From Escherichia phage vB-Eco-KMB37: a stretch of DNA of 64,000 nt. The stretch lies in sequence record OR525700. One strand, given 5' to 3'. The notes below the pieces were generated by a model. The model was given only the letters and a program-made list of their open reading frames with translations, searched no databases and was not told the origin of the DNA. The stretch's first letter is position 1, and each line of letters begins with the position of its first letter. Positions 12,529 through 34,933 of the stretch are shown one piece after another. The translations under genes and the position numbers were made by a program.

Positions 12529-14688
12529 ATGAAACAGGCTATTTTTACTGTAACTCGAAATACGAGAGTAAATGCCAGTTCATTCAGCTATAAGACCGTC
12601 GATGGAACGGCGGTCGCTGGTAGAGATTATGTAGCTAAACAGGGAACAGTAACGTTCCCTTCTGATGCAGATTCTGCTACTGTAGTGGTTGATGTATATG
12701 AACGTCCGGCAAACTCTTTAGATCTTTATTTTACTCTTGAGATTACTAGCATAAGTCAAAATAACATGATGATCAATGAAGAAATTCGTTGTGTTATTAC
12801 GACTAATCAATCGAATACGACCCCGCTAACTTGGCCTGTTGTGAAGTCTAGAATGTTTGATCCTAAGTTTTGGACAATAGATTCTCAAGCAACAGAAAGT
12901 TGTTCTATTATCTCTAATGGTGATTCTTTCACAGCAAGAATGGTTAATAGGACAGTGGCTGGTCTTGCTGGGATTATTTGGTCAACTTACGATAAATATG
13001 ATCACAAAGGATTAGGCTACCAAGAACATTCTGACTTAAGTAAAGAGAAACTTTGGTTTAAAATGGAACTTAGTCAAGGTGTTCCTGGATTAAAAGAAGA
13101 AAAATTAATACCATCCTTAACAGTGACACTGAAGGATGAAACAGTTCATTATGTATCTCTAAACTTTTATGCAGAAGAAGTTTCAGAGGATGGTAAAACA
13201 GCAACAATCAAACTAGATTTCTCAAATTTAAAATCTGGGCCAGAAAATGATATTGTTGTTGACACTACACAGATAGATAATATGTTCTTCTCCTTGATCT
13301 CAACGAGGTATCAAGAAATTGAAGATATTATTCCTGTAGACAATGAGGATCTTTCCTTTAAGTTTACCATACTGGAGCCTGATACTGGTTACAGTATGAT
13401 GAATATGGGTAATTTAAATGTTCCAGCACACACCATAAGAATGTGTACATCTTATGATGATATGTATAACCTGACCCCAGAGCGAGTTATTTCTAACACC
13501 TACAGATTAGGTTATAGGGATATGATTAACCACTATAATGGTATGTCACACTATTATCAGTTTAGTTGGGATGCTGGTTCTAATAAATGGGCTTTGAATA
13601 GAACAGAATATTTAAACCCAGCAACAGAAGCATGGTTTGATAATTTCCACGCTAATGCAAAAGCTATGGGCTACACAGTAATGAATTCCTTAAGTTTTGA
13701 ACTTATGAGTACAGTGTGTCCTGTAGAATGGGTACAACATACTTGGAATGATAATCTTGCTGCTACAGGTTATGAGCCACCAAGTTATGTTTTATCTCCT
13801 TCAATTGATGAAGGGATGGATTATTTACAAGGTGTAATAAATAAGATAGCTTCTATATCCGCTGCTAATGATCTTCCGGTTATTATTCAGGTTGGTGAAC
13901 CGTGGTGGTGGTATAACACAGCTACCAATCTACCGTGTATTTATGATTATACAACCAAAGTTGCATTTAATAATGAAACTGGATTGTATGCACAAGATGT
14001 TGGTACAGTTAAAAATTATAAAACTGGTACACCATATGATGAATATTATGCATTCCTATCTAAAACATTAGGACTGCGTGTTGCTAAATTTGCAACAGAT
14101 ACCAGATTAGCATATCCTGGAGCTAAAGTTACATTGTTACCATTTGTGCCATCCATTTTGGGTAATGGTATGATGGAGTTTGTTAACTTCCCTAAAGATT
14201 ATTATATCCCAGAAAACTTTGACTTTTATTGTTCAGAATGTTATGACTGGTTGTTGGAAGGTAAGATGGAAAGATCTTTCGACGCTATCACAATACCCAA
14301 TGAGCAACTAGGTTTTAGTTATGATAAGATACATTATCTTGCAGGGTTTGTTCCAGATGCAACTCTAGCACCATTATATGGCTTTGATCCTGAATCAGAC
14401 TACAGAACATACTTGTGGAAAATGATTATAGGTAATATTGTATTGAATGATCAGAAGTTTGTTGGTTTATATCAATACATATGGGCTTACCCACAAATAA
14501 TGCATGATTCAATAACTGTTCTTAATTCAAAATCCCAAGTGTTTTATATGGGTAATGTGCCTTTGAATTGCTACTTGCAAGATATCACTCTTAAACAGGT
14601 AAATGTTGAGATTGCCACTATAAGTGGAATTACATTAGCCACCAAATCTGGAGAAGATTTAGTAACAACACAAAAATTTTATATATAG
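12529..14688 (+). CDS. structural protein (baseplate or fibre associated)
   Basis: 719 aa ORF; RBS AAGGAAAA upstream; no motif recognised. Confidence 0.45.
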   Translation: MKQAIFTVTRNTRVNASSFSYKTVDGTAVAGRDYVAKQGTVTFPSDADSATVVVDVYERPANSLDLYFTLEITSISQNNMMINEEIRCVITTNQSNTTPLTWPVVKSRMFDPKFWTIDSQATESCSIISNGDSFTARMVNRTVAGLAGIIWSTYDKYDHKGLGYQEHSDLSKEKLWFKMELSQGVPGLKEEKLIPSLTVTLKDETVHYVSLNFYAEEVSEDGKTATIKLDFSNLKSGPENDIVVDTTQIDNMFFSLISTRYQEIEDIIPVDNEDLSFKFTILEPDTGYSMMNMGNLNVPAHTIRMCTSYDDMYNLTPERVISNTYRLGYRDMINHYNGMSHYYQFSWDAGSNKWALNRTEYLNPATEAWFDNFHANAKAMGYTVMNSLSFELMSTVCPVEWVQHTWNDNLAATGYEPPSYVLSPSIDEGMDYLQGVINKIASISAANDLPVIIQVGEPWWWYNTATNLPCIYDYTTKVAFNNETGLYAQDVGTVKNYKTGTPYDEYYAFLSKTLGLRVAKFATDTRLAYPGAKVTLLPFVPSILGNGMMEFVNFPKDYYIPENFDFYCSECYDWLLEGKMERSFDAITIPNEQLGFSYDKIHYLAGFVPDATLAPLYGFDPESDYRTYLWKMIIGNIVLNDQKFVGLYQYIWAYPQIMHDSITVLNSKSQVFYMGNVPLNCYLQDITLKQVNVEIATISGITLATKSGEDLVTTQKFYI

Positions 14689-14696
14689 GAGTAAAA

Positions 14697-15548
14697 ATGT
14701 CAACTACAATTACTAATTTACCCGAAACATCAAAAGTTAATGGTTCTGATTACCTGGTTTTAGACCAATCTGATAAGACTGTTAAAAGCACAGTTTCCAA
14801 CTTTCTTACTGACACTGGGGTGGTTTTAGCCACCCAGTTGAAAGATACAGATGGGGCATCTTTCATCAATACTTCTGACGGTGACTCTGTGCAGGTACAC
14901 CTAGATGCTATTGAGTCTGCTGCCCAAGTAACCACAAATTTGATTAAAGAAACCAATTCTGTAATTCCACCAGACTATAGTCGCCAACTTATTATTGGTG
15001 TTACTGATCGTGCGGGTGAAGCCAGTGCACAAATTCGTGCCGATGCTGGTAAAGGCGAAACTAATCCTATCCCCCAATGTATAGCAACTGACCCGGTAAC
15101 AGGAGAATTCTTTATTACTCGTGGATGGGATGCAATATCTCCTGTGTACGTTCATATTTATGACCGTAATTTTAACTTCCTTAAGGTTGTACGAGCTGGA
15201 GGTGGTTGGGGTGAGGGTATAGTTATCGGCTATGTTAATGGTGAACGTCGTATTGCAGTTAGTCGTGCATCTGCTGGGTATGCTGTTTATTCTTTACCGG
15301 CTACTGAAGACATTACTGGTTTAAATAGTGCAACTCTATTGTTTGAGCAGACTAGTGCTAACCAAGAGGCACAGCTTTCCAGTTATGGTAACTATGTAAC
15401 AATTCGCTGTTCTCATCTTGGTGATGACCGGTATATACGCCGCAGTCTGTATAGTGTGTATGACTTACAAGAATTTCTTACTACACCAGACCCAGTAAGA
15501 AAGAGTTTTATTCATTTCCCGTCTGACCAGATGAGTGGGGGGTATTGA
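14697..15548 (+). CDS. tail fibre protein, N-terminal portion (likely fragment of a split gene)
   Basis: 283 aa; N-terminal anchor-like module (ITNLPETSKVNGSDYLVLDQSDKTVKSTVSNFL); ends inside a G6 tract where the next ORF begins in the +1 frame. Confidence 0.55.
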   Translation: MSTTITNLPETSKVNGSDYLVLDQSDKTVKSTVSNFLTDTGVVLATQLKDTDGASFINTSDGDSVQVHLDAIESAAQVTTNLIKETNSVIPPDYSRQLIIGVTDRAGEASAQIRADAGKGETNPIPQCIATDPVTGEFFITRGWDAISPVYVHIYDRNFNFLKVVRAGGGWGEGIVIGYVNGERRIAVSRASAGYAVYSLPATEDITGLNSATLLFEQTSANQEAQLSSYGNYVTIRCSHLGDDRYIRRSLYSVYDLQEFLTTPDPVRKSFIHFPSDQMSGGY

Positions 15549-16761
15549 TACTAACTTCTTGGTTACTAAGTGTCAGGCAACTTGCCTTAGCCCTCGTGGG
15601 ATGGCTGGTCACAACGGTCAGACTTGGCACACTGTCAATGCTAACAGAGAGCTTCCGGGTTATCGCTTGCGATTCATTGAGGTATCTCATGGTGGTGATG
15701 TAATCACTAACCAAGTGCTGCATCCTAAATATGTGCTCGCTGAATATGCAAACAAAGGTTGGACACGTCCACTTGGTCAACCTTTAGATAATACGGAACC
15801 AGAAGGTATCTGCTACTCAAATGAGTATGGGTATGTCTGGCTTACAGTAATTTCTGAGCGAGTGTTTATTACCGCTCAGTATAATCCTGTACTGGCTGCC
15901 GAGTTGGATACTAATCGTGATTTAGACTTACGTGTGGCAGCTTTGCCACAGAGTAACAACCCAGGTAGTGCAAGATCTGTGTCAGCTAATGCCCCGATAG
16001 ATGATACTTCTGGTACTGCGTTGACTACCCCAGATGAAATTGTGGATATGATGCGTGCACGCCACTTACGTTACTACTCATGCTCACTCCGTAATGGATT
16101 AACTTTTGGTGATGTTTCTTTTACTGGAGACTACAATATGGCTGAGTTTGTATTGGTGGATGGAAACCAGTGTGCTGTCACTATCACCATTGAACGTAGT
16201 AATGTTCACCAGTTCTTCGCCTCTGGTGATACCCCAAGAAGATGGATGTATAGTGCAGTGCAGTATGGAGGTACTACATCTGATCAGGTAACAGGGGGTA
16301 GGACTTCTATGATCCAAATCGCACCAAATAACTTTGGGCAGATCAGGGTAGTTACCGCTGGCACTGGCAATCATACCCCGATGCAGTTTATAAGTAACCA
16401 GACAGCAGCAGTGGGGTCAATCACTATGACCAGCACTGCTACTGCATTCAACACTACATCGGATGAACGTCTTAAAGTGCTGCATGGCAATGTTCCAGAT
16501 GCTTTATCTATTATTGAATCTATGATTAATGACGGTGCAGTCCAGATGGCGGCATTTAAAGCTGATCCAGATAAAATATACCCTATGCTGATTGCCCAAC
16601 GCGTAGCTAAGTCTTGTGACTTTGCTGTAACTAAAGGTGATGGTGAGTATGGTGAAGAAGGATTCATCCCTGATATGGTAGATTACAGTAAACTTGTTCC
16701 ACTTTTGTTTGCTGCCATTATGCAGTTAAAAGCAAAGTTAGATGAGTGTGAAAGTAAGTAA
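15535..16761 (+). CDS. tail fibre protein, C-terminal portion with intramolecular chaperone (peptidase S74-like) domain
   Basis: 408 aa; C-terminal segment SDERLKVLHGNVPDALSIIESM...LVPLLFAAIMQLKAKLDE resembles the auto-cleaving C-terminal chaperone domain of tail fibres and endosialidases; GTG start inside the G tract. Confidence 0.6.
   Translation: MGGIDTNFLVTKCQATCLSPRGMAGHNGQTWHTVNANRELPGYRLRFIEVSHGGDVITNQVLHPKYVLAEYANKGWTRPLGQPLDNTEPEGICYSNEYGYVWLTVISERVFITAQYNPVLAAELDTNRDLDLRVAALPQSNNPGSARSVSANAPIDDTSGTALTTPDEIVDMMRARHLRYYSCSLRNGLTFGDVSFTGDYNMAEFVLVDGNQCAVTITIERSNVHQFFASGDTPRRWMYSAVQYGGTTSDQVTGGRTSMIQIAPNNFGQIRVVTAGTGNHTPMQFISNQTAAVGSITMTSTATAFNTTSDERLKVLHGNVPDALSIIESMINDGAVQMAAFKADPDKIYPMLIAQRVAKSCDFAVTKGDGEYGEEGFIPDMVDYSKLVPLLFAAIMQLKAKLDECESK
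15537..15542 (+). repeat. G6 homopolymer tract at the junction of two tail fibre ORFs
   Basis: GTGGGGGGT at 15535-15543; ORF 14697-15548 and ORF 15535-16761 are offset by +1; removing one G fuses them into one open frame of about 690 codons. Confidence 0.8.
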
Positions 16762-20887: not shown

Positions 20888-21229
20888 ATGGAGCTAACAG
20901 AAGTATGGGATATCGCTAAAGAGGCGATTATCCCTCTTATTGGCGTAATCTGGGTGGTCTTCAAACAGAAGATAGATGATATGGCAAGTGATTTGGATAA
21001 AATGGAAGACAAATACCGCGAACTAGAAAAGAAGTTGGTGTTTGTTGAATCCACTTATGCTACCAAAGCAGAACTTGCTCAAATGCTTAACCAGATCAAC
21101 TCTACATTAATGGCAAATAATACTGCCTTAGAACAGAAGATTGAAAAAATAATGGATTTAAAAAATGCTCCTGTTCAATTAATGTTAGAGGAGATTACAA
21201 AGCGCACACAAAGTAAGGACAAAAATTAA
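20888..21229 (+). CDS. hypothetical coiled-coil protein with N-terminal membrane helix
   Basis: 113 aa; hydrophobic N-terminal segment followed by charged helical region. Confidence 0.4.
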   Translation: MELTEVWDIAKEAIIPLIGVIWVVFKQKIDDMASDLDKMEDKYRELEKKLVFVESTYATKAELAQMLNQINSTLMANNTALEQKIEKIMDLKNAPVQLMLEEITKRTQSKDKN

Positions 21230-23643
21230 TGGCGAATTTTCCAACATATCCTGCTACGACACTAGAACAAGGTGTTGATCTGGTTATATTCTCGTCTAAC
21301 CAGATGCATGATGTTATTAATGGGGATGCTACAGCAACTGTAGAAACCGAAACAGGTTTAATACCTACACTGCGTAAAGCACTTGTTGATAACTTCTTCT
21401 TTAAGAGTCCTGTTGCTTGGTCAGCAGGATCAACTGAAACTGTATTTAACCAGTTACGTTATTTTGAAAACGGTATCTTGAGTGGGTACTATTATGCCCC
21501 ATCTGCCACTACTGCTAACCCTGTACCTATGCAGGGTACACCTGTAGGAGACAGTAACTGGACTCTGTACGCTCTTAAAACTGAACAGTTAGCTTCAGAT
21601 GTGTATCCTTGGTATTTTAAAGGTGCTACAGGATATGAAACAGAAATCAGTCCTCCTTATATCTTTGATAATGCTATTGTCACCATTAACGGTGTAATTC
21701 AGATTCAAGGTGAAGCATTTACTATCAAAGATAGTAAAATTATTCTGGCAGAACCATTAGGTTTAGATCCGTCTACTGGTCTACCTAACAAATTGTTTGC
21801 TTTTATTGGTAAAACAACAGCCTCTACTTCTTACGTAGAGAAAAACCTTTTGTCATCTACCACTGGTGCAGCAATGGTTGGTCTTCCATCTGGAGGCAAC
21901 CTGTTACAAGCTCAATACTTTGTAACGCCTGAGCAGTTTGGTGCAATTGGTGATGGAGTTACCGATGATACTCAAGCAATTTTAAAAACCATTACTTTCG
22001 CTAACACGAATAACATTCAAGTACGTGCAGATAAGAATTATAGATTCACAAGCTCAATTGCTATGTCTGGTATTCGTTGGTATGGAGGTACATTCACTGG
22101 TAACGGTGGAACAATGATTTCTACTGTATCCTGTTGGATGGAAAACGTTCGCTTTGAAAAATGTTATGTTAAGATGTTAGGTGGCGATTGCCGATTCTAT
22201 CGTAATATCTTCTCCAATGCAACATCTACAGCAGCATTCTTAATGCAAGCAATGACAAGTGAAGGTACGTTGGACTTCAGTTACAACGAAATGTATGGTT
22301 GTAAATATGCGATCCTGCAACAAGGTACTGGAGAAGTAATGACCTACGGGCGTTACTCTAACAACTATATTCACGATATCAAAGGTGATGCTATTGAACT
22401 TAACGTAGTTCAAAAACACTACACTGAAGGTTTGATTATCGAGAATAACCACATTGCTAACGTAGATGCTTCTGGACAAGGGGCAAACTGGGGTATTGGT
22501 ATTGGTGTAGCAGGTAGTGGCCCATATGGTGTTGATGTTCCTGATTCACAATATGTACGTAACTTCAGTATCGTTGGGAATAGGGTTTACAATTGCCGTC
22601 AATGTTTACACGTTGAAATGGGTAAAAACTTCACGATACGTGATAATGAAGTTTATCCTAACACAGCAGTTTCAACAGGTACAGGTTTAACTACTTGTGG
22701 TGTTGCATTATACGGATGCCAAGATTTTGAAGTTGATGGTTTAACTGGTTATCTGCTTAATGATCCGTCTGTTTCAACACGCATGGTCTTTATTGATTGG
22801 GGTGTTAACAGTGGAAGATATGCGGGGCCACCAATTAACTTTACAATTAAGAATTTGGATATTCCAGAATCTTCAATTGAGATTGCAACATCTGGATCAG
22901 ATGCTTGGGAAAACTCTACAATTGTTAGTAACATCAATTGTAATGTTTTTAAATGGCGTGGGCTACCATCTAGCTCTACTTTTAATAATATTCGTTGCCG
23001 TAGTATTGACTTTATTGGTCAACACGGAAGCGGAGAAGGAAGTGGTGGCGGTTTCTATACTCGCAGCCAATTCACGTATATGAAGTGGGTAGGATGTACA
23101 GCACTTAGCGGAGATGAAACAACAGTTTCTTTTGCTAAAATCTACACTGATCGTTGCGATCAGGTTGGAAATAACTTTGGTGTTCCAACTGCTGTTGATG
23201 GTACAGGTCATCGTGGGCCAGTTTTAACTACTATTTCTGAACAATATTTTACAGCTTATGATGAATTCCCAGGTGGGCGTGAATTCCCTACTGGAACAGT
23301 TATTCATTGTGCAAGCGGTAAAAAACATGTTGTTACAGTAGGTGGTGCTTTCTTTAGTGCCAACGAGAAAATAAAAGCAACTGTTACAGGTCAAACCTAT
23401 CTACAGTCTAATGCTTTAAACTGGGCTAGTAATGGCTACGCTAAAGCAGCAGGTACTAAGATTGTTATTCCAGGTGCAGGTGCAAATGGCGGCGATCTTG
23501 TGACAACTATAGCACGTGCTACATATGTGACAAATAGTTTGTACACAATAGATATTGCAGATCCAATTGTAACACCTACAGCAGAGAATACACAAATCAA
23601 AGCTCTGAACCCTGTTACTTTTGTTACTGTCAATAATGCTTAA
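21229..23643 (+). CDS. tailspike-like protein with right-handed beta-helix (pectin-lyase-like) region
   Basis: 804 aa; repeated N/G-rich beta-strand motifs (NNHIANVDASGQGANWGIGIGVAGSG; NRVYNCRQCLHVEMGKNFTIRDNEVYPN) typical of parallel beta-helix depolymerases. Confidence 0.45.
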   Translation: MANFPTYPATTLEQGVDLVIFSSNQMHDVINGDATATVETETGLIPTLRKALVDNFFFKSPVAWSAGSTETVFNQLRYFENGILSGYYYAPSATTANPVPMQGTPVGDSNWTLYALKTEQLASDVYPWYFKGATGYETEISPPYIFDNAIVTINGVIQIQGEAFTIKDSKIILAEPLGLDPSTGLPNKLFAFIGKTTASTSYVEKNLLSSTTGAAMVGLPSGGNLLQAQYFVTPEQFGAIGDGVTDDTQAILKTITFANTNNIQVRADKNYRFTSSIAMSGIRWYGGTFTGNGGTMISTVSCWMENVRFEKCYVKMLGGDCRFYRNIFSNATSTAAFLMQAMTSEGTLDFSYNEMYGCKYAILQQGTGEVMTYGRYSNNYIHDIKGDAIELNVVQKHYTEGLIIENNHIANVDASGQGANWGIGIGVAGSGPYGVDVPDSQYVRNFSIVGNRVYNCRQCLHVEMGKNFTIRDNEVYPNTAVSTGTGLTTCGVALYGCQDFEVDGLTGYLLNDPSVSTRMVFIDWGVNSGRYAGPPINFTIKNLDIPESSIEIATSGSDAWENSTIVSNINCNVFKWRGLPSSSTFNNIRCRSIDFIGQHGSGEGSGGGFYTRSQFTYMKWVGCTALSGDETTVSFAKIYTDRCDQVGNNFGVPTAVDGTGHRGPVLTTISEQYFTAYDEFPGGREFPTGTVIHCASGKKHVVTVGGAFFSANEKIKATVTGQTYLQSNALNWASNGYAKAAGTKIVIPGAGANGGDLVTTIARATYVTNSLYTIDIADPIVTPTAENTQIKALNPVTFVTVNNA

Positions 23644-23685: not shown

Positions 23686-25647
23686 GTGATTTTAACACGT
23701 CCAAATAGTGCCATTGCAGACATGGTAGAGTCTCGCTATAGAAAGCGTAGAAGTTTTGCAAGTGGTTTTACCTTAAGAGATGCTCGTGAAGCATTGCTCT
23801 TTGAAACTGACGGTAACTACTATCAGTGGAAAGGTTCTCTACCTAAAGTTGTACCTGCTAACTCTACTCCTACATCTACTGGAGGGATTTCAGATACAGC
23901 TTGGAAAAATGTGGGTAATGCAGATGACATTGCTCAAATAGAATCAGAATTAGATGCTATTGAAGCTGAAATTGAAGATCTTAGAGAATCCATTCCAGAA
24001 GCTGGTAAATCAGCTTACCAGATTGCCGTAGACAATGGTTTCCAAGGTACTGAGACAGACTGGTTGGCTTCTTTAAAAGGTGATCCAGGTGCTCCATTAA
24101 AGCTGCTAGGGACGCTATCTAATACCAACCAATTACCTACAACTGGAAACAATGCAGGAGATGCATGGATTGTAGGCGAGAATATGTATGCTTGGGATGG
24201 TACTGCTTGGAGAAAAGTAAACTCACAGGGGCCAGAAGGTAAATCAGCTTATCAAGTTTGGCTTGCAGCAGGAAACCAAGGTACAGAACTAGATTATCTT
24301 GCTTCAATTAAAGGTGATAAAGGGGAGCCTGGCCCAGAGGGGCCACAAGGTGTGCCAGGTAACAATGCTAATGGTTTTGATTACCAAGGTGCAGCTAATT
24401 CCGTTTCAGATCTTCCTTCTGCATCTCCTGGAAACACATCTCAAGCATGGAGTATTGGTACATATCTATACGTGTCAAACGGTGTAGAATGGATCAATAT
24501 GGGCGCTATAGTGGGGCCAAAAGGAGATAAAGGCGACAAAGGAGATAAGGGTAACACTGGTGATTCTGCTTATCAAGTCTGGTTAAATGCTGGTAACGTT
24601 GGTACTATTGACGAATATATTGCCTCTCTGAAAGGAGAAAAAGGTGATAAGGGAGACAAGGGTGATCAAGGTGAGCAGGGTATACAAGGCTTGACGGGGC
24701 CAACTGGTGCAGGGTTGACCATTATTGATATTCTGACTGACACTTCTGAACTACCACAAACTGGAGAAGATGGTGATGGTTATCTGATCAATAATGAACT
24801 TTGGGTTTGGTTGCAAGGAGCCACACAGTGGACAAATGTTGGTCGTTTAGCTGGTACTCCAATCACTGCAAAAGGACACGTTGCGTCTGCAAGTGCACTT
24901 CCTCCTACATCCAATTACGGTGATGCTTATCTGACGGAAGATACAGGTCATCTTTACATTTACACCTATGATGAACAAACTCAAACTGCTGAATATGTAG
25001 ATATGGGTAGTTTGAAAGGTGATAAGGGTGAGAAAGGTGACGCTGGTACTAATGGTACGGATGGTGCAACTTGGATTGTTAAAACAACAGATCCAATCTC
25101 TAGTGATGGTAAACAAGGGGATTATGCCTTTAATATCTCCACTGGCGAGGTGTTCTTAAAAACATCTGCAACTGCCTGGACTTCTCAAGGTACACTGCCT
25201 AGCATCACAGATGCACCTAGTGACGGTAAGATCTATGCTCGTAAAGATGGAACATGGGAAGAACTCACTAGTTCTGTAGATGGTCAAGATATAGTTCCAA
25301 CAAAAGTAACAACTAATTTTATAGAGGTTACAGCATACACCAACAACTCTGTTACAGGGGACTGGACACCTCCAGGAACACATAACATGAATGTGTTGAA
25401 TCTTACTGGTAACTCTACTATAAAAGCATGGCCTGGTGTCGAAGATAGCACAAAACCTAAACCATTCTCTGCAATAGTTTATCTTATCCAAGATGCCACT
25501 GGGGGTCATACTGTTACTTTAGATCCATCTTACAAAGTAATTGGTTCTAGTGATATTAATACAGATCCTAACGGAGTAACAATACTACAACTAACATATT
25601 GTGGTGTTGGTGATTACGTGGATGCTATTGTTGCTAAACGCACATAA
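23686..25647 (+). CDS. tail fibre protein with collagen-like Gly-X-Y repeats
   Basis: 653 aa; several Gly-X-Y blocks (GDKGEPGPEGPQGVPG; GPKGDKGDKGDKGNTGD; GEKGDKGDKGDQGEQGIQGLTGPTGAG; GDKGEKGDAGTNGTDG) separated by conserved spacer modules. Confidence 0.7.
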   Translation: MILTRPNSAIADMVESRYRKRRSFASGFTLRDAREALLFETDGNYYQWKGSLPKVVPANSTPTSTGGISDTAWKNVGNADDIAQIESELDAIEAEIEDLRESIPEAGKSAYQIAVDNGFQGTETDWLASLKGDPGAPLKLLGTLSNTNQLPTTGNNAGDAWIVGENMYAWDGTAWRKVNSQGPEGKSAYQVWLAAGNQGTELDYLASIKGDKGEPGPEGPQGVPGNNANGFDYQGAANSVSDLPSASPGNTSQAWSIGTYLYVSNGVEWINMGAIVGPKGDKGDKGDKGNTGDSAYQVWLNAGNVGTIDEYIASLKGEKGDKGDKGDQGEQGIQGLTGPTGAGLTIIDILTDTSELPQTGEDGDGYLINNELWVWLQGATQWTNVGRLAGTPITAKGHVASASALPPTSNYGDAYLTEDTGHLYIYTYDEQTQTAEYVDMGSLKGDKGEKGDAGTNGTDGATWIVKTTDPISSDGKQGDYAFNISTGEVFLKTSATAWTSQGTLPSITDAPSDGKIYARKDGTWEELTSSVDGQDIVPTKVTTNFIEVTAYTNNSVTGDWTPPGTHNMNVLNLTGNSTIKAWPGVEDSTKPKPFSAIVYLIQDATGGHTVTLDPSYKVIGSSDINTDPNGVTILQLTYCGVGDYVDAIVAKRT

Positions 25648-25650
25648 TCA

Positions 25651-25675
25651 AAGCCCCTTCGGGGGCTTATTGTTT
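25651..25675 (+). terminator. intrinsic terminator (UUCG tetraloop)
   Basis: AAGCCCC-TTCG-GGGGCTT followed by ATTGTTT. Confidence 0.7.
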
Positions 25676-25686
25676 AAGGAGATTAA

Positions 25687-28506
25687 ATGTATCCTATTCC
25701 TTTATTTATGTCAACAACATCAGCTTCAGTAGTAACAGCTACATCTATAACTACTTCCTCTATTGGTATTGCAATAGTTGGTGGTAAAAAACAACTGACA
25801 TACACAGTTACACCCGAAGATGGTGCGTTATTTGATATAGCTTTTTCATCTTCAGATGATACCAAAATGGTTATAGATAATAGTGGTATGATGGAGTTTG
25901 TTGCCGAAGGTGGTTTTGATGCAATAATGACAGCTAAAAATAATTTAGGTGCTGTCTTAACTGATCAATCTGGTGGTTATGCTTCAGAATTAAGTGTGTA
26001 CACTGAAAGTCTATCGGCTATGGATGTAGGCACTACTCAACAGTTGGTTGCTACAATCAGTCCAGAAGGTGCTAAAGACCTTCCAGATATGGTAATTACA
26101 TACACCACAACAGATCCAGAAGTAGCTACTGTAAGCCCTACAGGGTTAATAACTGCTCTTAAAGATGGCGGTTGCCGTATAGGTTGTACTGCAACGTATC
26201 AAGGAACAGTTGTGGCCTCTGATAGTTCTTATTTAGGTGTTAATGCTATTCCTGTTATTTCTAATGTAACAGCCGTGGCAAACAGCTATGGAGACGTTCG
26301 TGTTGCTTGGGATGTAGCTGATCCGCTAGACGGTGATACTTATACTGTAGAAGTATTAGATTTAAGTAATAATAGTGTTCAGTGGACTACAACAACCACG
26401 AATACTTACGCCTACTTTGATATCTCTGACTCTATTCCTCTTTATGGGTTTGCTCCAACATACCTTAAAATTAGCGTTAAGAGCACCAAAGCAGCAGCCG
26501 TTATCTTTAATAACTCAATAGCTACAGATGATTCGTTCATTAAAGAAGTTATTGTCTTTGCTGGACAAGATAACGTAAATGCACACTTTACAGAACTATC
26601 TGGTGCAAATAAAGCAGCAATGGGTAGCACAACAGCCCGTAATGCATATGCTACGCAACGTGGTTTAGCAAATGCTGAAGTTCTTCCGTTAAATACAGCT
26701 TCTGGATCATCAGCAGCAGATAAATATGCTGACGATAAAGCTGGAACAGGTACACCAGATAACTACTGGTATGATCTGGATAACACAGCAGATGGGCCAT
26801 GCTTAACTAACTTTATCACTAAAGTCACACCTTATGCAAGTAAGGTTAAAGCAATTATTTGGGGACAAGGTGAAAATGATGCTGTATCAGCATCTTCGAC
26901 TGTTGCAGGTAGGTACAGTAACACTACACGTTACCATGATGCTACGATAGCTATCTTTGATAAGATGCGTACAATAGTTCCTGCTTCTCAAGCAAAAATT
27001 GTTTGGCAGATCCTAGGACGTTCTTATTTATATGGTGTAGAAGTTAATGGTGTGGATTGGCAGAAGTACAGAAATGTACAAAGAACCATCTCTACAGCAC
27101 GTGATGATGTTATCATTGGTTCTTGGGTAGATGGTGCTGAACGTTACAGTGGTTATGTTTATGAAGAAGGTATTGATGGTCGTATCCATTATATTTCTTC
27201 TGTATACCAAACAGCAGCTACAAAACTTGCTAAATCAGCAGCAGACGGTACAGACTTAACATCAACGTCACCTGTTTGGGTTGATATGGCTGTTCCAACT
27301 GGAGCAACAGCTACTTCCCAACCTAATCAAGATACAATTTTAGCATGGGATGCTCAAGGCTATAGTAAACACTACTTCCGTAATATTAACGTCTTAACAG
27401 CATCTGTAGTAGCTGAACAAACGCTTAATACGAACAGTTATACGTTTACCTATGCAGATCAAGTAGAACAATATGGTTTTGCGGCAGGAACTACTATATT
27501 TGATGTTGCATATTATGACGAAGCAAATGATGTGTTATCTCCTTTAGTACGTTTTAATGTTAACGTTACAGCAGGAACAGTGGAAGACAAACCTGTCGTG
27601 ATGGATTATGACTTGACGCAAGAAACTCTTCCATCAGGTGTTCAGGCTAATGGCGGGAACTCTTTTGCTCGTGCTTCTGGAGATATACTTGTAGCCACTA
27701 ACACCTTGGTTGCTCCGTTGGAGTATGTTGGTACTACCCCTGTAGGTAGACGTGTAACAGCTAACACAGCCTCACAAATTTTTGTCAACAACGCCTTAAC
27801 AAGTGCAAGCCCGTGGGTAAAGACCAACTTAACTGTTGCAGCTTCGTCTGATAACTCTCCGGCTGGAACTACTGCCAATGTATTCAAATTAACTCCGACT
27901 ACAACCTCTGGTAGTCATATCTTAACTGCAACATATACTAACGCGTACAACATATACGCCGGACGTAACTGGTCTGCCTCTGTTTTCTTGAAAGCGAACG
28001 GGATTACTAAGGCCAAACTAAGATTACAAGCAGGGACTGAAGTTAATGAGGGTACTTTTGATTTAGCAGCAGGCACATTCACAGGAAGTGAAGCTAATAT
28101 TATATCTATGGGCAACGGTTGGTATCGTGCTATTCTGCATAAAACAGGGATAGCCAAACAGTCCTCCATAAGTTTTGAAATAATTGCCTTGGATGCAACT
28201 GGTGCGGAGATTTTCGCTGGAGATGGTACTAGTAACCTTGCAGTTTGGTTGCCACAGCTTGAAGGTGCTCCTACAGGACAAACATCAAAAGCTGGATCGC
28301 CTTTTGTCTGCACATATCCTGGAAATTTAGGAGGAGTATCCTTCACTATACCAAGGAACGGACATACTGGCGTGGATGTTTACTATTCCAACGGAGACGT
28401 TGTTCGTGACGTATTCTCTGGTACGGCATCTACTTGGACAATAAACTACTCCAGCTTGTACGATTGGGGATCAGTCTTTATTACAGGTTTGAAATATTAC
28501 GACTAA
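25687..28506 (+). CDS. large tail protein with Ig-like (Big_2-type) region and putative SASA-type carbohydrate esterase domain
   Basis: 939 aa; Ig-like segment around TATYQGTVVASDSSYLGVNAIPV; motifs FAGQDNVNAH and IWGQGENDA resemble the GQSN and QGE-D blocks of sialate-O-acetylesterase-like esterases; terminal gene of the structural arm. Confidence 0.4.
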   Translation: MYPIPLFMSTTSASVVTATSITTSSIGIAIVGGKKQLTYTVTPEDGALFDIAFSSSDDTKMVIDNSGMMEFVAEGGFDAIMTAKNNLGAVLTDQSGGYASELSVYTESLSAMDVGTTQQLVATISPEGAKDLPDMVITYTTTDPEVATVSPTGLITALKDGGCRIGCTATYQGTVVASDSSYLGVNAIPVISNVTAVANSYGDVRVAWDVADPLDGDTYTVEVLDLSNNSVQWTTTTTNTYAYFDISDSIPLYGFAPTYLKISVKSTKAAAVIFNNSIATDDSFIKEVIVFAGQDNVNAHFTELSGANKAAMGSTTARNAYATQRGLANAEVLPLNTASGSSAADKYADDKAGTGTPDNYWYDLDNTADGPCLTNFITKVTPYASKVKAIIWGQGENDAVSASSTVAGRYSNTTRYHDATIAIFDKMRTIVPASQAKIVWQILGRSYLYGVEVNGVDWQKYRNVQRTISTARDDVIIGSWVDGAERYSGYVYEEGIDGRIHYISSVYQTAATKLAKSAADGTDLTSTSPVWVDMAVPTGATATSQPNQDTILAWDAQGYSKHYFRNINVLTASVVAEQTLNTNSYTFTYADQVEQYGFAAGTTIFDVAYYDEANDVLSPLVRFNVNVTAGTVEDKPVVMDYDLTQETLPSGVQANGGNSFARASGDILVATNTLVAPLEYVGTTPVGRRVTANTASQIFVNNALTSASPWVKTNLTVAASSDNSPAGTTANVFKLTPTTTSGSHILTATYTNAYNIYAGRNWSASVFLKANGITKAKLRLQAGTEVNEGTFDLAAGTFTGSEANIISMGNGWYRAILHKTGIAKQSSISFEIIALDATGAEIFAGDGTSNLAVWLPQLEGAPTGQTSKAGSPFVCTYPGNLGGVSFTIPRNGHTGVDVYYSNGDVVRDVFSGTASTWTINYSSLYDWGSVFITGLKYYD

Positions 28507-28508
28507 TA

Positions 28509-28540
28509 AAAAAGGAGCCATTAGGCTCCTTTTCTTTTAT
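28509..28540. terminator. bidirectional intrinsic terminator at the convergence of the two gene arms
   Basis: AAAAAGGAGCC-ATTA-GGCTCCTTTTCTTTT: A-tract upstream and T-tract downstream of a perfect stem; lies between the last plus-strand gene and the last minus-strand gene. Confidence 0.75.
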
Positions 28541-28541
28541 C

Positions 28542-28973
28542 TTAATCAGTGAAAATTACGCTTACATCTTCTTTAGAAAAGAGTTTATGATCTTCACCTT
28601 TTGTCTCAAGAGTTTCATACAGGCTAAGAAGTTCTGAAACATCTTTCTCTACCAGTTTCTTCAATGTTGCAATTTTCTGTTTGCGACTCTTAATACGTTC
28701 AGCTACAACCTTACGCTGGTATCCGGCAGTACGATAACCTGAGAAAGTTACACCAGTAAGGCTTGCAGTTACAGGATCGTAATGACGTTCAATCTGAAAC
28801 TTATTAAAAGGTACAGCGTCATCACGAATAATCTTACCGCCATTACTTACTTGACGAAGACCAGTAACTTGTTCCAGTCGTGCCATAGAAATCTTTGGAG
28901 ACAGACCAGAGTCCAGGTTCATACCATTGTTAATCAGTGCTTTCAGGGTGATTTTGCTGTTCAGTGTACTCAT
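28542..28973 (-). CDS. hypothetical protein
   Basis: 143 aa; start at 28973 preceded by GGAGGAA RBS; 44 bp overlap with the 3-prime end of the methyltransferase gene. Confidence 0.45.
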   Translation of the reverse strand: MSTLNSKITLKALINNGMNLDSGLSPKISMARLEQVTGLRQVSNGGKIIRDDAVPFNKFQIERHYDPVTASLTGVTFSGYRTAGYQRKVVAERIKSRKQKIATLKKLVEKDVSELLSLYETLETKGEDHKLFSKEDVSVIFTD

Positions 28974-29661
28974 TTAGTCGTTCCTCCGCTTGCTTAAAAA
29001 TATTTACATCGGCTTCACAGCCTAAGTATTCTCTACCTGTTAAAAGTGCCGCAACTTGTGTTGTTGCACTTCCAGAGAAGAAGTCTAAGACTACATCTCC
29101 TTCGTTGGTGTGTATATTAATAAGGTCACAAAACAAAGTCAAGTGTTTTTGTGTTGGATGAAAACGATCTGCTCCTTGATAGATAGGATACTCAAACACA
29201 CCCTTATGGTAGGAAGCATTGAAGGTTGGTTTCGAACCTTTAACACAAACAATAGCCATCTCTTTAGCGTTACTAAGGTAGTTAACACCACTGTTGATGG
29301 GTACAGGGTTTGTTTTAATCCATTCGATAGTACGGAACATACGAAAACCAAGCGGTTCAAGGATTTCACGTAGCTCTTGGATCTTCCAGATATCATACCA
29401 AACTATGCAAGTACCACCTTTTCTAAGCACCCTGTAGGCTTCTTTGAATACTTCTTTAAAGTAAGGAATATCTACAACATCCCAGTCACCAAAGTTGTAA
29501 GATACACGGAATCTATCCGTATCTTTTCCAGTAGGCTCTCCAGACTGAAAATTTGTGTCACGAGAAATAGCATATGGTGGGTCAGTAAGAATCAAATCTA
29601 CACTATTGCTTTCGAGGGTTTGCAGGTAGTTTAATGCGGTGTTGTTTACAAATTCGCTCAT
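28930..29661 (-). CDS. DNA methyltransferase, N6-adenine/N4-cytosine beta class (orphan)
   Basis: 243 aa; DPPY motif (LILTDPPYAISRD) near N-terminus and FxGxG AdoMet motif (VLDFFSGSATT) near C-terminus; RBS AAGGAG; no adjacent restriction endonuclease. Confidence 0.8.
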   Translation of the reverse strand: MSEFVNNTALNYLQTLESNSVDLILTDPPYAISRDTNFQSGEPTGKDTDRFRVSYNFGDWDVVDIPYFKEVFKEAYRVLRKGGTCIVWYDIWKIQELREILEPLGFRMFRTIEWIKTNPVPINSGVNYLSNAKEMAIVCVKGSKPTFNASYHKGVFEYPIYQGADRFHPTQKHLTLFCDLINIHTNEGDVVLDFFSGSATTQVAALLTGREYLGCEADVNIFKQAEERLNEYTEQQNHPESTD

Positions 29662-32353: not shown

Positions 32354-34933
32354 TCAGTGACAAGACGCCCATGAGTTACCAACATCGTAACCAGCAGTGA
32401 GAGGTACATTAAGATTGTAATACTCACCAGCTTTATTAACAGCGATAGATGCTAATTCTCCAGCACGACTATAGGCTGTAAACCAACCACCTTTTGGAGA
32501 TTCATGTACGTTAGCCCAAATCTTGCCAGTACGTTTCTCTTCCTCTTCTTTCCAGGCATTAACTTTATCCAAACATTCTTTATCAATTTTCTTTTGTTCT
32601 TCTGGATCATCAACTTGAGTCCAACCTAAAGATTCTTTAGAGAACCATTTAAAATGCACCAGATCACGAGTTACTTCAAGCTGTGCTTCATCGTGATATG
32701 CAATCATTTGTTGAACGAATGACTTATTTTTCCAGTCATCAACAAAAAAGTCAACAGCTAATCCTTCTTCTTCGATAAGATCGTCGTAGATAACCATTGC
32801 TCTTTTTGCACAAATAACACCACCACTCTGGAACAGAGAGTTAAGTATTGCGTGTGCAGATCGTGTAGGTACTTTTCTACCATCAATACCAAGAATGTAT
32901 TTCTTACCTGTTTTAACCCAAAAATCATGCAGACGTTCTTTAAGAAGCGCAAGAGGTTTTGCAGCTTCCCAGAAAGCATCGTATACAAGCTGTCCTGTAT
33001 ACATATCACTACCTATAGTTTTTGCTACTTTTGCAGCTTGAGCACCATAAGTAATACCATACTTAACAGATTTAGCAGGGCTTCGTTCAAACTTACGACC
33101 AATAGTGTCAGAAATACGTCGAGCCATCATTGTATGAACATCATTAGGTTTTTCCAATAATAGAGCATTACAATACTCGTGTGGTTCCTGCTCGTACCGC
33201 CAACAGTAGTGTGATTCTATTTTTGCCTCAAGAGAATCAAAGTCATAACCAATTTGGAAGTATTTTGGAACTTCTACACCAAATAAGTTACGCATTTCAT
33301 ATCCGTACAGAGATGTTACACGTGGGATATTTGCTACTAACCTATGTTTCATACGAGACGTAGCTGCATCACACGTTGCAGCAGGGGTTGGTATACGACC
33401 ATCAGCCCTTACTGCCGCCAGATAACCTTTATCGTAATCCTCTTCATCTTCTTCCCAATCCGCACCACCGCCTAGGATAGAGTTTCTACGATGTTTATAC
33501 GTAAGATATTGCACAATCTGCGTAGCATAAGGAAACTTTTCACCCAGTGCTTCCAAGTTAGGACAAATATCTTTCTCTTGCCCTTTTGTAAAGGAAGGGT
33601 TAGTAAGCACTTTAACACCACGACCTTTAGCCTTAGCAATACGATCTCTTAGTTTCCATTCCAAAGTTTCTGGTGTGCACTCCAGATGATCACATCTGTC
33701 CTGACAGAAGTTAGATGCTAATGTTTGATCAACATAGTCACGAATAGCTTTCTCCATTTGTGCTTCATCTTTCTTAATCTTAGTGCCAGATTTAAGAGTG
33801 ATATCTTTATCTTTGTATTCAGATGGACTCCAACCTAAACCAACTAACCAATTTTTAATATGTGTAGTGTCGTCTAAAGTAGCAGGTACTGTAGGATCAC
33901 AAATAGGTTCTTCTGCTGGAATAGGGAGTTTAAACTCTTTACCTAATGCAAATAACCACCAACCATCTTCTTTTTGTACAAGTTCGCCAGAATGTTTCTC
34001 TGCAAACTTTATCATGTTACTTGAAGGTTCACCATTCTTTTTAAACTGTAGTTTAGGTGGAATGAATGATTTCAAATAACCTTTAGTAGCAGGTTTGGGA
34101 GGTAGTACAGGTTCTGCCTCTAAACGACATGCTTCCATTCGAGCATCCAGATCACGAATATTATCTTCTGCTTGTTTCATATTGAAAGCAAAGCCACGGT
34201 GCTCTTGACGTGTAATAATATCCGCTACACGTTGTTCTAAGTTAAATGGTTCAGACCACTTATTATAATCACCCCACTCTTCCATCAAATAACGGAACAC
34301 TGCGGTGTTAGCTTTGTTATCGTAAATACAGTAATACAGCATATCTGCTGCAAATGTTTTAAATCTTTCAGTTTCAGGGATGTTTTTTCTAAAATCAATT
34401 TTAACATCCCCTCCAGCTTTCTTAGATAACTCTGCCAGACTATGACCACCGAAGCGATCAGGGTTTAGTGTCTTACTTAAGATCATAGTATCACAAATTT
34501 CAATGTTACTATTACCCCAAGTATTGTACTTAATACTGTAGTTGAGTTTAAAAAATAATTTAATTGCTAGTAAGTCAAAGTTAATGATGTTATGTCCAAC
34601 TACTTTGGTAATTTTATAGTTTGAATTACCTTTAAATTTACCTGTTCCATTTACAAAATCAGGAAAATCTTTAAGAGGGAAATGGGTATATTCTAAATGC
34701 TCATATTCCTCCAGTCGGTATTCATACTTTCCGTCAGTCTCAACATACGGACGACCATCGAAAAGATATTTATCACCATCATGGAAAGCAATAATCTCTC
34801 CAGTATCATGACTTTCGCACACAATACAGTGCATTGCAAAACTATCTTTTAAACGATATGGACTTGCCAAGTAATCTACACTTTCGTCATTAAGCAAGTT
34901 GTTACTTTCAATGTCGAAAGTAAAAGCTCCCAT
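32354..34933 (-). CDS. DNA polymerase, family A, with 3-prime-5-prime exonuclease domain
   Basis: 859 aa; Exo I-like FDIES near N-terminus, motif B-like KSVKYGITYGA, motif C-like YHDEAQ; RBS AAGGAGGGAG. Confidence 0.8.
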   Translation of the reverse strand: MGAFTFDIESNNLLNDESVDYLASPYRLKDSFAMHCIVCESHDTGEIIAFHDGDKYLFDGRPYVETDGKYEYRLEEYEHLEYTHFPLKDFPDFVNGTGKFKGNSNYKITKVVGHNIINFDLLAIKLFFKLNYSIKYNTWGNSNIEICDTMILSKTLNPDRFGGHSLAELSKKAGGDVKIDFRKNIPETERFKTFAADMLYYCIYDNKANTAVFRYLMEEWGDYNKWSEPFNLEQRVADIITRQEHRGFAFNMKQAEDNIRDLDARMEACRLEAEPVLPPKPATKGYLKSFIPPKLQFKKNGEPSSNMIKFAEKHSGELVQKEDGWWLFALGKEFKLPIPAEEPICDPTVPATLDDTTHIKNWLVGLGWSPSEYKDKDITLKSGTKIKKDEAQMEKAIRDYVDQTLASNFCQDRCDHLECTPETLEWKLRDRIAKAKGRGVKVLTNPSFTKGQEKDICPNLEALGEKFPYATQIVQYLTYKHRRNSILGGGADWEEDEEDYDKGYLAAVRADGRIPTPAATCDAATSRMKHRLVANIPRVTSLYGYEMRNLFGVEVPKYFQIGYDFDSLEAKIESHYCWRYEQEPHEYCNALLLEKPNDVHTMMARRISDTIGRKFERSPAKSVKYGITYGAQAAKVAKTIGSDMYTGQLVYDAFWEAAKPLALLKERLHDFWVKTGKKYILGIDGRKVPTRSAHAILNSLFQSGGVICAKRAMVIYDDLIEEEGLAVDFFVDDWKNKSFVQQMIAYHDEAQLEVTRDLVHFKWFSKESLGWTQVDDPEEQKKIDKECLDKVNAWKEEEEKRTGKIWANVHESPKGGWFTAYSRAGELASIAVNKAGEYYNLNVPLTAGYDVGNSWASCH

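Follow-up and report, generated by a model that had tools for sequence, protein, structure and literature searches.

An esterase-fold domain with aspartate at the nucleophile position in a mosaic, putative adhesin fiber of Escherichia phage vB-Eco-KMB37

The plus-strand tail module of Escherichia phage vB-Eco-KMB37 ends in an intact open reading frame (ORF; 25687..28506, plus strand) that starts with ATG and encodes a 939-aa protein matching PHROG 32204 and PHROG 11922 ('tail protein') with E values of 0 and 4.5e-225, respectively. Positions throughout are those of the window, the whole 64,000-nucleotide (nt) stretch of sequence record OR525700 that was analyzed. A preliminary description of the same letters had seen here a terminal tail protein that combines immunoglobulin (Ig)-like repeats with a putative SASA-type carbohydrate esterase domain, recognized by the motifs FAGQDN and WGQGEND. 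The ORF, the repeats and both motifs (residues 291-296 and 392-398) are borne out by translation and Pfam, and convergent minus-strand genes come next. The proposed esterase fold is likewise recovered, but the residue at the position of the catalytic serine is an aspartate, Asp295, which makes the enzymatic part of that description probably wrong. The coding sequence and its modules are as follows.

25687..28506, plus strand: coding sequence of the 939-aa tail fiber or adhesin, orthologue of PaulScherrer bas60_0037, with phi92 gp152 and gp153 as broken remnants
25687..25746, plus strand: N-terminal peptide, residues 1-20 (MYPIPLF...), with M(Y/F)PIPxF conserved at the N-termini of P0048, P0037 and P0034
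25747..26256, plus strand: two Big_2 Ig-like domains, residues ~21-190 (Pfam PF02368)
26257..26526, plus strand: first linker domain, residues 191-280, start of the cassette colinear with N4-like gp65
26527..27279, plus strand: SGNH/SASA-fold esterase-like domain, residues 281-531, from the fold model and family profile
26569..26571, plus strand: codon GAT for Asp295 at the block I nucleophile position (GQSN in the family, GQDN here), by profile alignment
26860..26880, plus strand: block III (the block of the oxyanion hole), W392-GQGEND-398, corresponding to QGESD in 1ZMB and 2APJ, by profile alignment
27187..27189, plus strand: codon CAT for His501, retained at the block V catalytic base position ('RIHY'), by profile alignment
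27280..27576, plus strand: second linker domain, residues 532-630, homologous to the segment after the SASA-like domain in N4-type sheath proteins, with a recombination boundary at its end
27577..28503, plus strand: exchangeable C-terminal module, residues 631-939, marked by allele divergence and a putative determinant of polysaccharide-binding specificity
27784..28275, plus strand: gene transfer agent (GTA) head-spike-fiber-type domain, residues 700-863 (NCBIfam NF048003)

Structure prediction for the region proposed as an esterase recovered the SGNH fold. The AlphaFold2 model of the domain, built on 33 sequences found with HMMER, reached a pLDDT of 95.8 and a pTM of 0.92 and displays the three-layer alpha/beta/alpha arrangement of that fold. 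Foldseek ranked chains of the N4 gp65 'non-contractile tail sheath' first (TM-score 0.79-0.80, E 1e-13), with SGNH/GDSL esterases by the dozen ranked after them, and a profile of the domain family matched N4 gp65 with an E value of 1.5e-70. This link to gp65 is visible solely by profiles or structure; a single-sequence search of the Protein Data Bank (PDB) with residues 190-640 returned nothing at E<=0.01. Word-indexed searches with the domain alone or with a six-sequence profile gave fragments only, and an exhaustive HMMER search with residues 275-535 was needed, which returned just 78 cluster representatives from 1.84 billion proteins. Against the Pfam SASA model (PF03629), the comparison that the preliminary description had suggested, the protein stays below the curated cutoff of 24.8 bits, scoring 14.3 bits over its whole length and 17.0 bits when the domain is taken by itself, but 24 of 33 aligned relatives do match the model, the best of them with 56.7 bits (E 3.5e-15). 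FAGQDN and WGQGEND both lie inside conserved blocks of the domain family and are therefore not chance resemblances.

The block I nucleophile position is serine in 58 of the 73 aligned copies of the domain, whereas the sequence here is G293-Q-D295-N. In the model, beta-strand 1 (residues 287-293) ends at Gly293 and a helix begins at residue 295, so that Asp295 stands at the N-terminus of the helix following this strand, the canonical place of the nucleophile. FAGQDN is present in 31 of 31 near-full-length relatives, Asp295 is found also in the divergent allele of phage JohannJBalmer, and the GAT codon is at least two nucleotide changes away from any serine codon. The rest of the site is in place. 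By profile alignment, block II Gly340 and block III Q394-G-E-N397-D398 provide the oxyanion-hole residues, and His501 aligns with the conserved histidine of the family, lying just before the C-terminal helix in the model.

The serine of the GQSNM block is the nucleophile in SASA-domain CE20 esterases (PMC12313940), and GQSNM is block I of 1ZMB and 2APJ under the SGNH block definitions (PMC10792757). Serine was universal at block I in the SGNH structures surveyed there, with the sole exception of Oskar OSK, a non-enzyme with aspartate at that position (PMC10792757). OSK (5A4A) thus resembles the phage domain in combining an SGNH-like fold with aspartate for the block I serine (GDDFM in OSK), and it acts as a non-enzymatic binding domain (PMC10792757). 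The resemblance is one of analogy and not of close homology, since OSK has lost the whole triad, binds RNA and belongs to an animal germ-plasm protein, whereas only the serine is replaced in the phage fiber. Measured against SASA and 'putative acetylxylan esterase-like' SGNH esterases (1ZMB, 2APJ and NanS 3PT5; PF03629), the domain differs in Asp295, in its sub-cutoff Pfam score and in being embedded in a phage fiber, and it shares with NanS the absence of an acid residue at His-3. The esterase tailspike G7C gp63.1 (4QNL) and other SGNH esterase tailspikes belong to a different SGNH subfamily and are distant structural matches only; the serine is absent here, and a catalytic Ser-His(-Asp) SGNH domain in a trimeric spike of the gp63.1 type was not found. 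G7C gp63.1, which has the canonical serine, was reportedly described by Prokhorov et al. in 2017 as an active O-antigen deacetylase. For the domain in vB-Eco-KMB37, the substitution indicates that deacetylation has most likely ceased, and the protein would more likely bind host sugars than cleave them.

In the wider family, loss of the serine is usually accompanied by loss of the histidine. Across 42 domain copies covering blocks I, III and V, histidine is present in 30 of the 31 that bear the serine and in 3 of the 11 that do not (Fisher p 1.2e-5). In a neighbor-joining tree, the window protein and the Av-05-type proteins (GGDN) form a single aspartate clade nested among GQSN/His proteins, which implies one ancestral serine-to-aspartate change and, on this tree, places the loss of the serine in the ancestor that the proteins of Justusliebigvirus and Avunavirus type share. 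The Av-05-type proteins have decayed further: the block II Gly has become Ile or Ala, Leu stands in place of the block III Gln, and two of three have exchanged His for Gln. These sisters also lack the C-terminal module. The nearest GQSN-bearing relatives are NCTSP-type, gp65-like proteins (NCTSP_N, TIM barrel and SASA-like domain), while both SASA-like copies of N4 gp65 itself are incomplete, copy 1 lacking block V and copy 2 lacking block I and carrying Tyr at the His position. The pattern in these alignments suggests that, in phage receptor-binding proteins, this esterase fold has repeatedly become a non-catalytic module.

A second defining feature of the protein is its C-terminal module. 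NF048003, the 'phage head spike fiber domain', is matched with 69.1 bits against a cutoff of 36 (E 6.7e-19). Searches of PDB sequences align residues 641-937 with residues 166-455 of Sf11 gp17 (E 1.9e-19) and residues ~690-862 with RcGTA Rcc01080 (E 1.4e-12). The module is accordingly homologous to parts of Rcc01080 (6TB9) and of the C-terminal appendage carried by gp17, the distal tail protein of Shigella phage Sf11 (9OCC), although these proteins differ in host particle and attachment site (capsid vertex and siphophage tail tip, respectively) and the homologous parts are unresolved in both structures, so that the likeness comes from sequence. Rcc01080 has been shown experimentally to bind capsular polysaccharide, and its first 10 residues serve as its anchor (PMC10218006); by analogy, residues 631-939 may bind a surface polysaccharide. 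Between alleles, residues 1-630 are 97-100% identical while residues 631-939 are only 54-72% identical, and in the comparison with JohannJBalmer the nucleotide divergence rises from 2-3% upstream to 33% (synonymous divergence, dS, 1.49) past residue ~630. In these alignments the sharp boundary near residue 630 has the signature of an exchanged specificity module. An antisense ORF of 143 aa (27915..28346, minus strand) within this variable region is probably spurious and is not conserved in JohannJBalmer.

The modules upstream of that boundary are of two further origins. The M(Y/F)PIPxF peptide heads three different module architectures, and it may be a virion-attachment element by analogy with the RcGTA head-spike fiber's N-terminal anchor of 10 residues (PMC10218006). 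The Ig-like domains that follow match Big_2 in two stretches (50.5 bits against a cutoff of 22.8, E 2e-13) and share 56-74% identity with the two Big_2 domains in RCC1-type tail proteins of Phapecoctavirus; the combination of peptide and Big_2 pair is common to the Phapecoctavirus RCC1-type ('TfpM1') and the Av-05-type proteins. TfpM1-type tail proteins of Phapecoctavirus and 'Wecvirus' (~890 aa, for example in phage tuntematon) carry the same M(F/Y)PIPxF peptide but have an RCC1-like beta-propeller before the Big_2 pair and no SGNH cassette; the C-terminal module is shared with P0037 and with phAPEC8-type proteins at 42% and ~62% identity, respectively. TfpM1 was scored as absent from Justusliebigvirus in a 2025 taxonomy paper (PMC12695924), whereas the 939-aa gene shares three TfpM1 modules and looks, from its sequence, like a mosaic counterpart rather than an absence.

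Beyond the Big_2 pair, the first linker, probably a beta-sandwich, opens a stretch that is colinear with N4-like proteins. BLASTP aligned residues 194-630 with residues 614-1082 of the N4-like protein P0143 and residues 177-608 with 615-1070 of P0196; with P0196 the colinearity extends over residues 177-853 and 615-1419, the C-terminal fiber-type domain included, and residues 452-631 match positions 910-1091 of the 1393 in the PHROG 15324 profile. N4 gp65, a non-contractile tail sheath and receptor-binding protein of NCTSP type (PDB 9LC0, 9YF4/5/T), has the same colinear arrangement of a SASA-like domain flanked by beta-rich domains. The 939-aa protein differs from it in having, by Pfam, neither NCTSP_N (PF23844) nor TIM-barrel_NCTSP (PF23845), in carrying one SGNH-like copy and not two, and in its N-terminus, which is the Stephanstirmvirinae-type MYPIPxF followed by Big_2; moreover, the particle is that of a contractile-tailed myophage, in which a sheath of N4 type, hexameric and built with gp64 around a short tail tube, would not be expected. 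Given the shared N-terminus and Big_2 pair on one side and the gp65-type colinearity on the other, the protein is, in sequence terms, a mosaic in which a Stephanstirmvirinae fiber N-terminus and its Ig-like domains are joined to a linker-SGNH-linker cassette of gp65 type and to a tip that is exchangeable.

At the nucleotide level, at least 25 E. coli phages share the gene at 97-99% identity. They belong, as the window does, to Justusliebigvirus, a genus of phi92-like myophages in the Stephanstirmvirinae, and include ALITA, inny, alia and PaulScherrer/Bas60; public assemblies contain 28 clusters of 939 aa at 96-98% identity. Database labels range from 'tail protein' through 'lateral tail fiber protein with intimin and glycosidase domains' to 'non-contractile tail sheath', and the automated ALITA label is 'tail carbohydrate esterase'. 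The gene and its fold-level annotation were already in the databases; new are the replacement of the nucleophile and the way it is distributed over the tree, together with the colinearity with gp65 and the recombination boundary. The paper on phage BME3 describes the 939-aa fiber as common to the genus 'except for phage phi92', and in phi92 the copy indeed has an out-of-frame deletion of 218 nt as well as another frameshift, ends after residue ~628 without the C-terminal module and survives as gp152 and gp153 (FR775895.2, 91320-92982). The ALITA copy has a TAA stop at codon 720 (ALITA locus positions 14158-14160), which splits the annotation into 'tail carbohydrate esterase' and 'tail protein'. 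Being broken in both phages, the gene is dispensable in them and the protein is accessory under laboratory propagation; elsewhere it is intact and under purifying selection, with dN/dS of 0.09-0.31 across every domain.

Three GenBank entries recorded as 'Campylobacter phage' with host C. jejuni, MG065656 (C3), MG065645 (A145) and MG065650 (B15), each of ~146-151 kb, also bear on this distribution. In C3 and A145 the SGNH-like domain is present and 99.6-100% identical to that of Justusliebigvirus phages of E. coli; in B15 the match, at 95.6%, is to the start of the tailspike slot described below, which is conserved. The C. jejuni host assignment looks doubtful for all three, and contaminant phages are a possible explanation.

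In vB-Eco-KMB37 the gene is preceded by an orthologue of the colanidase tailspike (21229..23643) and, directly upstream, by a fiber gene (23686..25647) with a Tail_spike_N domain and collagen repeats, and it is followed by convergent replication and methylase genes. The several receptor-binding proteins proposed in the preliminary description belong to the multivalent phi92 apparatus, which has already been described. No Rfam family was matched in 25000-29200. Three short signals flank the gene.

25651..25668, plus strand: terminator-like GC-rich hairpin between the collagen-repeat fiber gene (stop at 25647) and the 939-aa gene, a pattern match from a consensus scan only
25676..25681, plus strand: AAGGAG, a Shine-Dalgarno sequence with 5 nt between it and the ATG, by direct reading of the letters
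28510..28533, no strand assigned: hairpin of 10 bp flanked on either side by T/A runs, between the 939-aa gene and the convergent minus-strand gene, from the consensus scan

The last of these looks, from its sequence, like a bidirectional terminator, and a terminator is annotated at the equivalent site in phages Paula and vB_Eco_PATM. Two further differences between the window and its relatives were observed. The variable tailspike slot, which holds gp143 (endosialidase) in phi92, is occupied here by two overlapping ORFs in different frames (14697..15548 and 15535..16761, plus strand; 283 and 408 aa) that have close relatives in the phage collection for the first ~270 nt only and no Pfam match, and that represent a tailspike allele which is either novel or frameshifted. 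The DNA polymerase ORF (32354..34933, minus strand) encodes 859 aa, the size found in ALITA, while the polymerase gene of PaulScherrer and phi92 measures 3315 nt and is annotated in PaulScherrer as intein-containing; the vB-Eco-KMB37 polymerase appears to be without the intein.

With moderate confidence, we interpret the 939-aa protein as an accessory adhesin fiber in which a conserved esterase-derived domain has lost its nucleophile and an exchangeable tip of capsule-binding type supplies specificity. The modules would follow one another from the MYPIPxF peptide, which would hold the fiber in the virion, through two Big_2 spacers and the linker-SGNH-linker cassette to the beta-rich C-terminal module. 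The cassette is homologous and colinear with the distal half of the N4-type gp65 receptor-binding 'sheath' proteins, and its SGNH/SASA-fold domain would descend from genuine GQSN-type carbohydrate esterases, with the serine nucleophile lost later. Of this picture, the fold, the homology, the substitution, the mosaic make-up and the dispensability in two phages come straight from the data, and the absence of catalysis, the glycan binding, the N-terminal anchor and a place in the virion are inferred. The domain would now probably serve as a rigid, conserved structural or glycan-docking bead, and the C-terminal module would provide strain-specific, reversible binding to surface polysaccharide.

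Several observations weigh against this interpretation. Only the serine is gone from the site, as Gln294, Asn296, Gly340, Q394-G-E-N-D398 and His501 are all kept, and aspartate nucleophiles exist in other hydrolase superfamilies, such as the haloalkane dehalogenases and HAD phosphatases. Conservation within the protein is highest in the SGNH-like domain, with 100% amino acid identity between alleles and a dN/dS of ~0.09 (on just 13 differences), and this domain has retained 42-51% identity to the serine-bearing relatives, against 33-39% for its Av-05-type sisters. Such slow evolution, together with the identity of the alleles, indicates that the site may have kept a role, be it in binding or in non-canonical catalysis. 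The AlphaFold2 model of the C-terminal module, built on a four-row alignment, was poor (pLDDT 56.7), which leaves the lectin-like nature of the module to be argued from homology of sequence alone; a Foldseek search with this model returned baseplate chains of Pa193 and E217 at an E value of 1e-6 but a TM-score of 0.29 and is not interpretable. Finally, neither the rV5 nor the BME3 paper reports proteomics or functional results for the 939-aa protein, and we found no binding, activity or virion-proteomics data for it.

The alternative that survives best, although we consider it unlikely, is that the protein is purely structural, with the SGNH-like bead and the Ig-like domains holding the C-terminal module off the baseplate and the former site free of ligand. 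Its beads-on-a-string architecture agrees with such a role, as does N4 gp65, in which the homologous domains form part of the sheath wall with incomplete motifs. Yet a spacer does not need the degree of constraint implied by the retention of Gly340, Asn397 and His501 in a domain that is 100% conserved, and the absence of the C-terminal module from the sisters with a decayed site indicates that the bead is not merely its stalk.

Similarly doubtful, and placed just behind it, is an active SASA-type carbohydrate O-acetylesterase that acts on O-antigen or capsule with Asp295 and His501 as nucleophile or general base. The confidently modeled fold, the integrity of every catalytic block but for the serine, the strict conservation and slower evolution of the domain relative to the sister branch and the automated ALITA annotation are all compatible with an enzyme. 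Set against these are the replacement of the nucleophile itself and the SGNH survey, in which no enzyme had aspartate at block I and the lone aspartate case was non-catalytic (PMC10792757), as well as the joint loss of serine and histidine in the family, the sister proteins that share the aspartate and went on to lose the histidine and oxyanion residues, and the sub-cutoff Pfam SASA score of the protein itself. That Asp295, His501 and the intact oxyanion hole form a working site, which would make the protein the first carbohydrate esterase (or transferase) of SGNH fold with an aspartate for the serine nucleophile, fixed and strongly conserved across a clade of phage fibers, we regard as improbable; alternatively, the site may have turned into a lectin pocket for O-acetylated host glycans that leaves them uncleaved.

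A further proposal, to which we attach very little weight, is that the cassette shared with N4 gp65 makes the 939-aa protein the NGR/NfrA-recognizing element of Justusliebigvirus. The cassette is colinear with the receptor-binding protein of N4, and Bas60-62 depend, as N4 does, on the NGR pathway (PMC8669472, PMC11990801). However, the NGR-associated domain, with its GMSHY motif within the gp65 TIM barrel, maps to the phi92 gp142 orthologue, which a 2026 preprint proposed as the NGR-glycan binder (bioRxiv 10.64898/2026.04.02.716166) and which in the window is ORF 12529..14688 and not the 939-aa protein. That plus-strand ORF encodes 719 aa with Calx-beta, NCTSP_N (E 4.6e-21) and TIM-barrel_NCTSP (E 1.3e-81) domains and has GMSHY at nt 13540, so that in domain content the parts of N4 gp65 are split here between the product of ORF 12529..14688, corresponding to the N-terminal half, and the 939-aa protein. 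Phage Eryne, moreover, has the gene (99.2% identity in the SGNH-like domain), yet is reported to be a poor NGR recognizer (PMC11984140), and the matches listed by tblastn with the SGNH-like domain were in Justusliebigvirus and Av-05 with no Vequintavirus (for example rV5) among them, although Vequintavirus phages are NGR-dependent nonetheless (PMC8669472; bioRxiv 10.64898/2026.04.02.716166). With the GMSHY/TIM-barrel domain located in ORF 12529..14688, an NGR/NfrA-binding role for the 939-aa protein was rejected. Equally remote is a decaying or dispensable remnant without present function, or a protein outside the virion, for while the gene is broken in phi92 and interrupted by a nonsense codon in ALITA, a full-length version of 939 aa is found in at least 25 GenBank phages and in the 28 clusters from public assemblies; the gene also has a strong ribosome-binding site and low dN/dS in all domains, and exchanges its C-terminal alleles as expected of a receptor-binding protein under diversifying pressure.

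The adhesin interpretation matters because phi92-like phages are models of multivalent, very broad host recognition and candidates for therapy, and the status of their fibers as enzymes or adhesins matters for the engineering of host range. The label 'tail carbohydrate esterase' reflects the fold alone, and with the nucleophile missing it is probably wrong or at least untested, while the clean boundary near residue 630 might serve for module swapping. Should the aspartate site prove active, SGNH chemistry would be extended; should binding without cleavage hold true, the 939-aa protein would offer a clear example of a phage receptor-binding protein in which an esterase has become a lectin.

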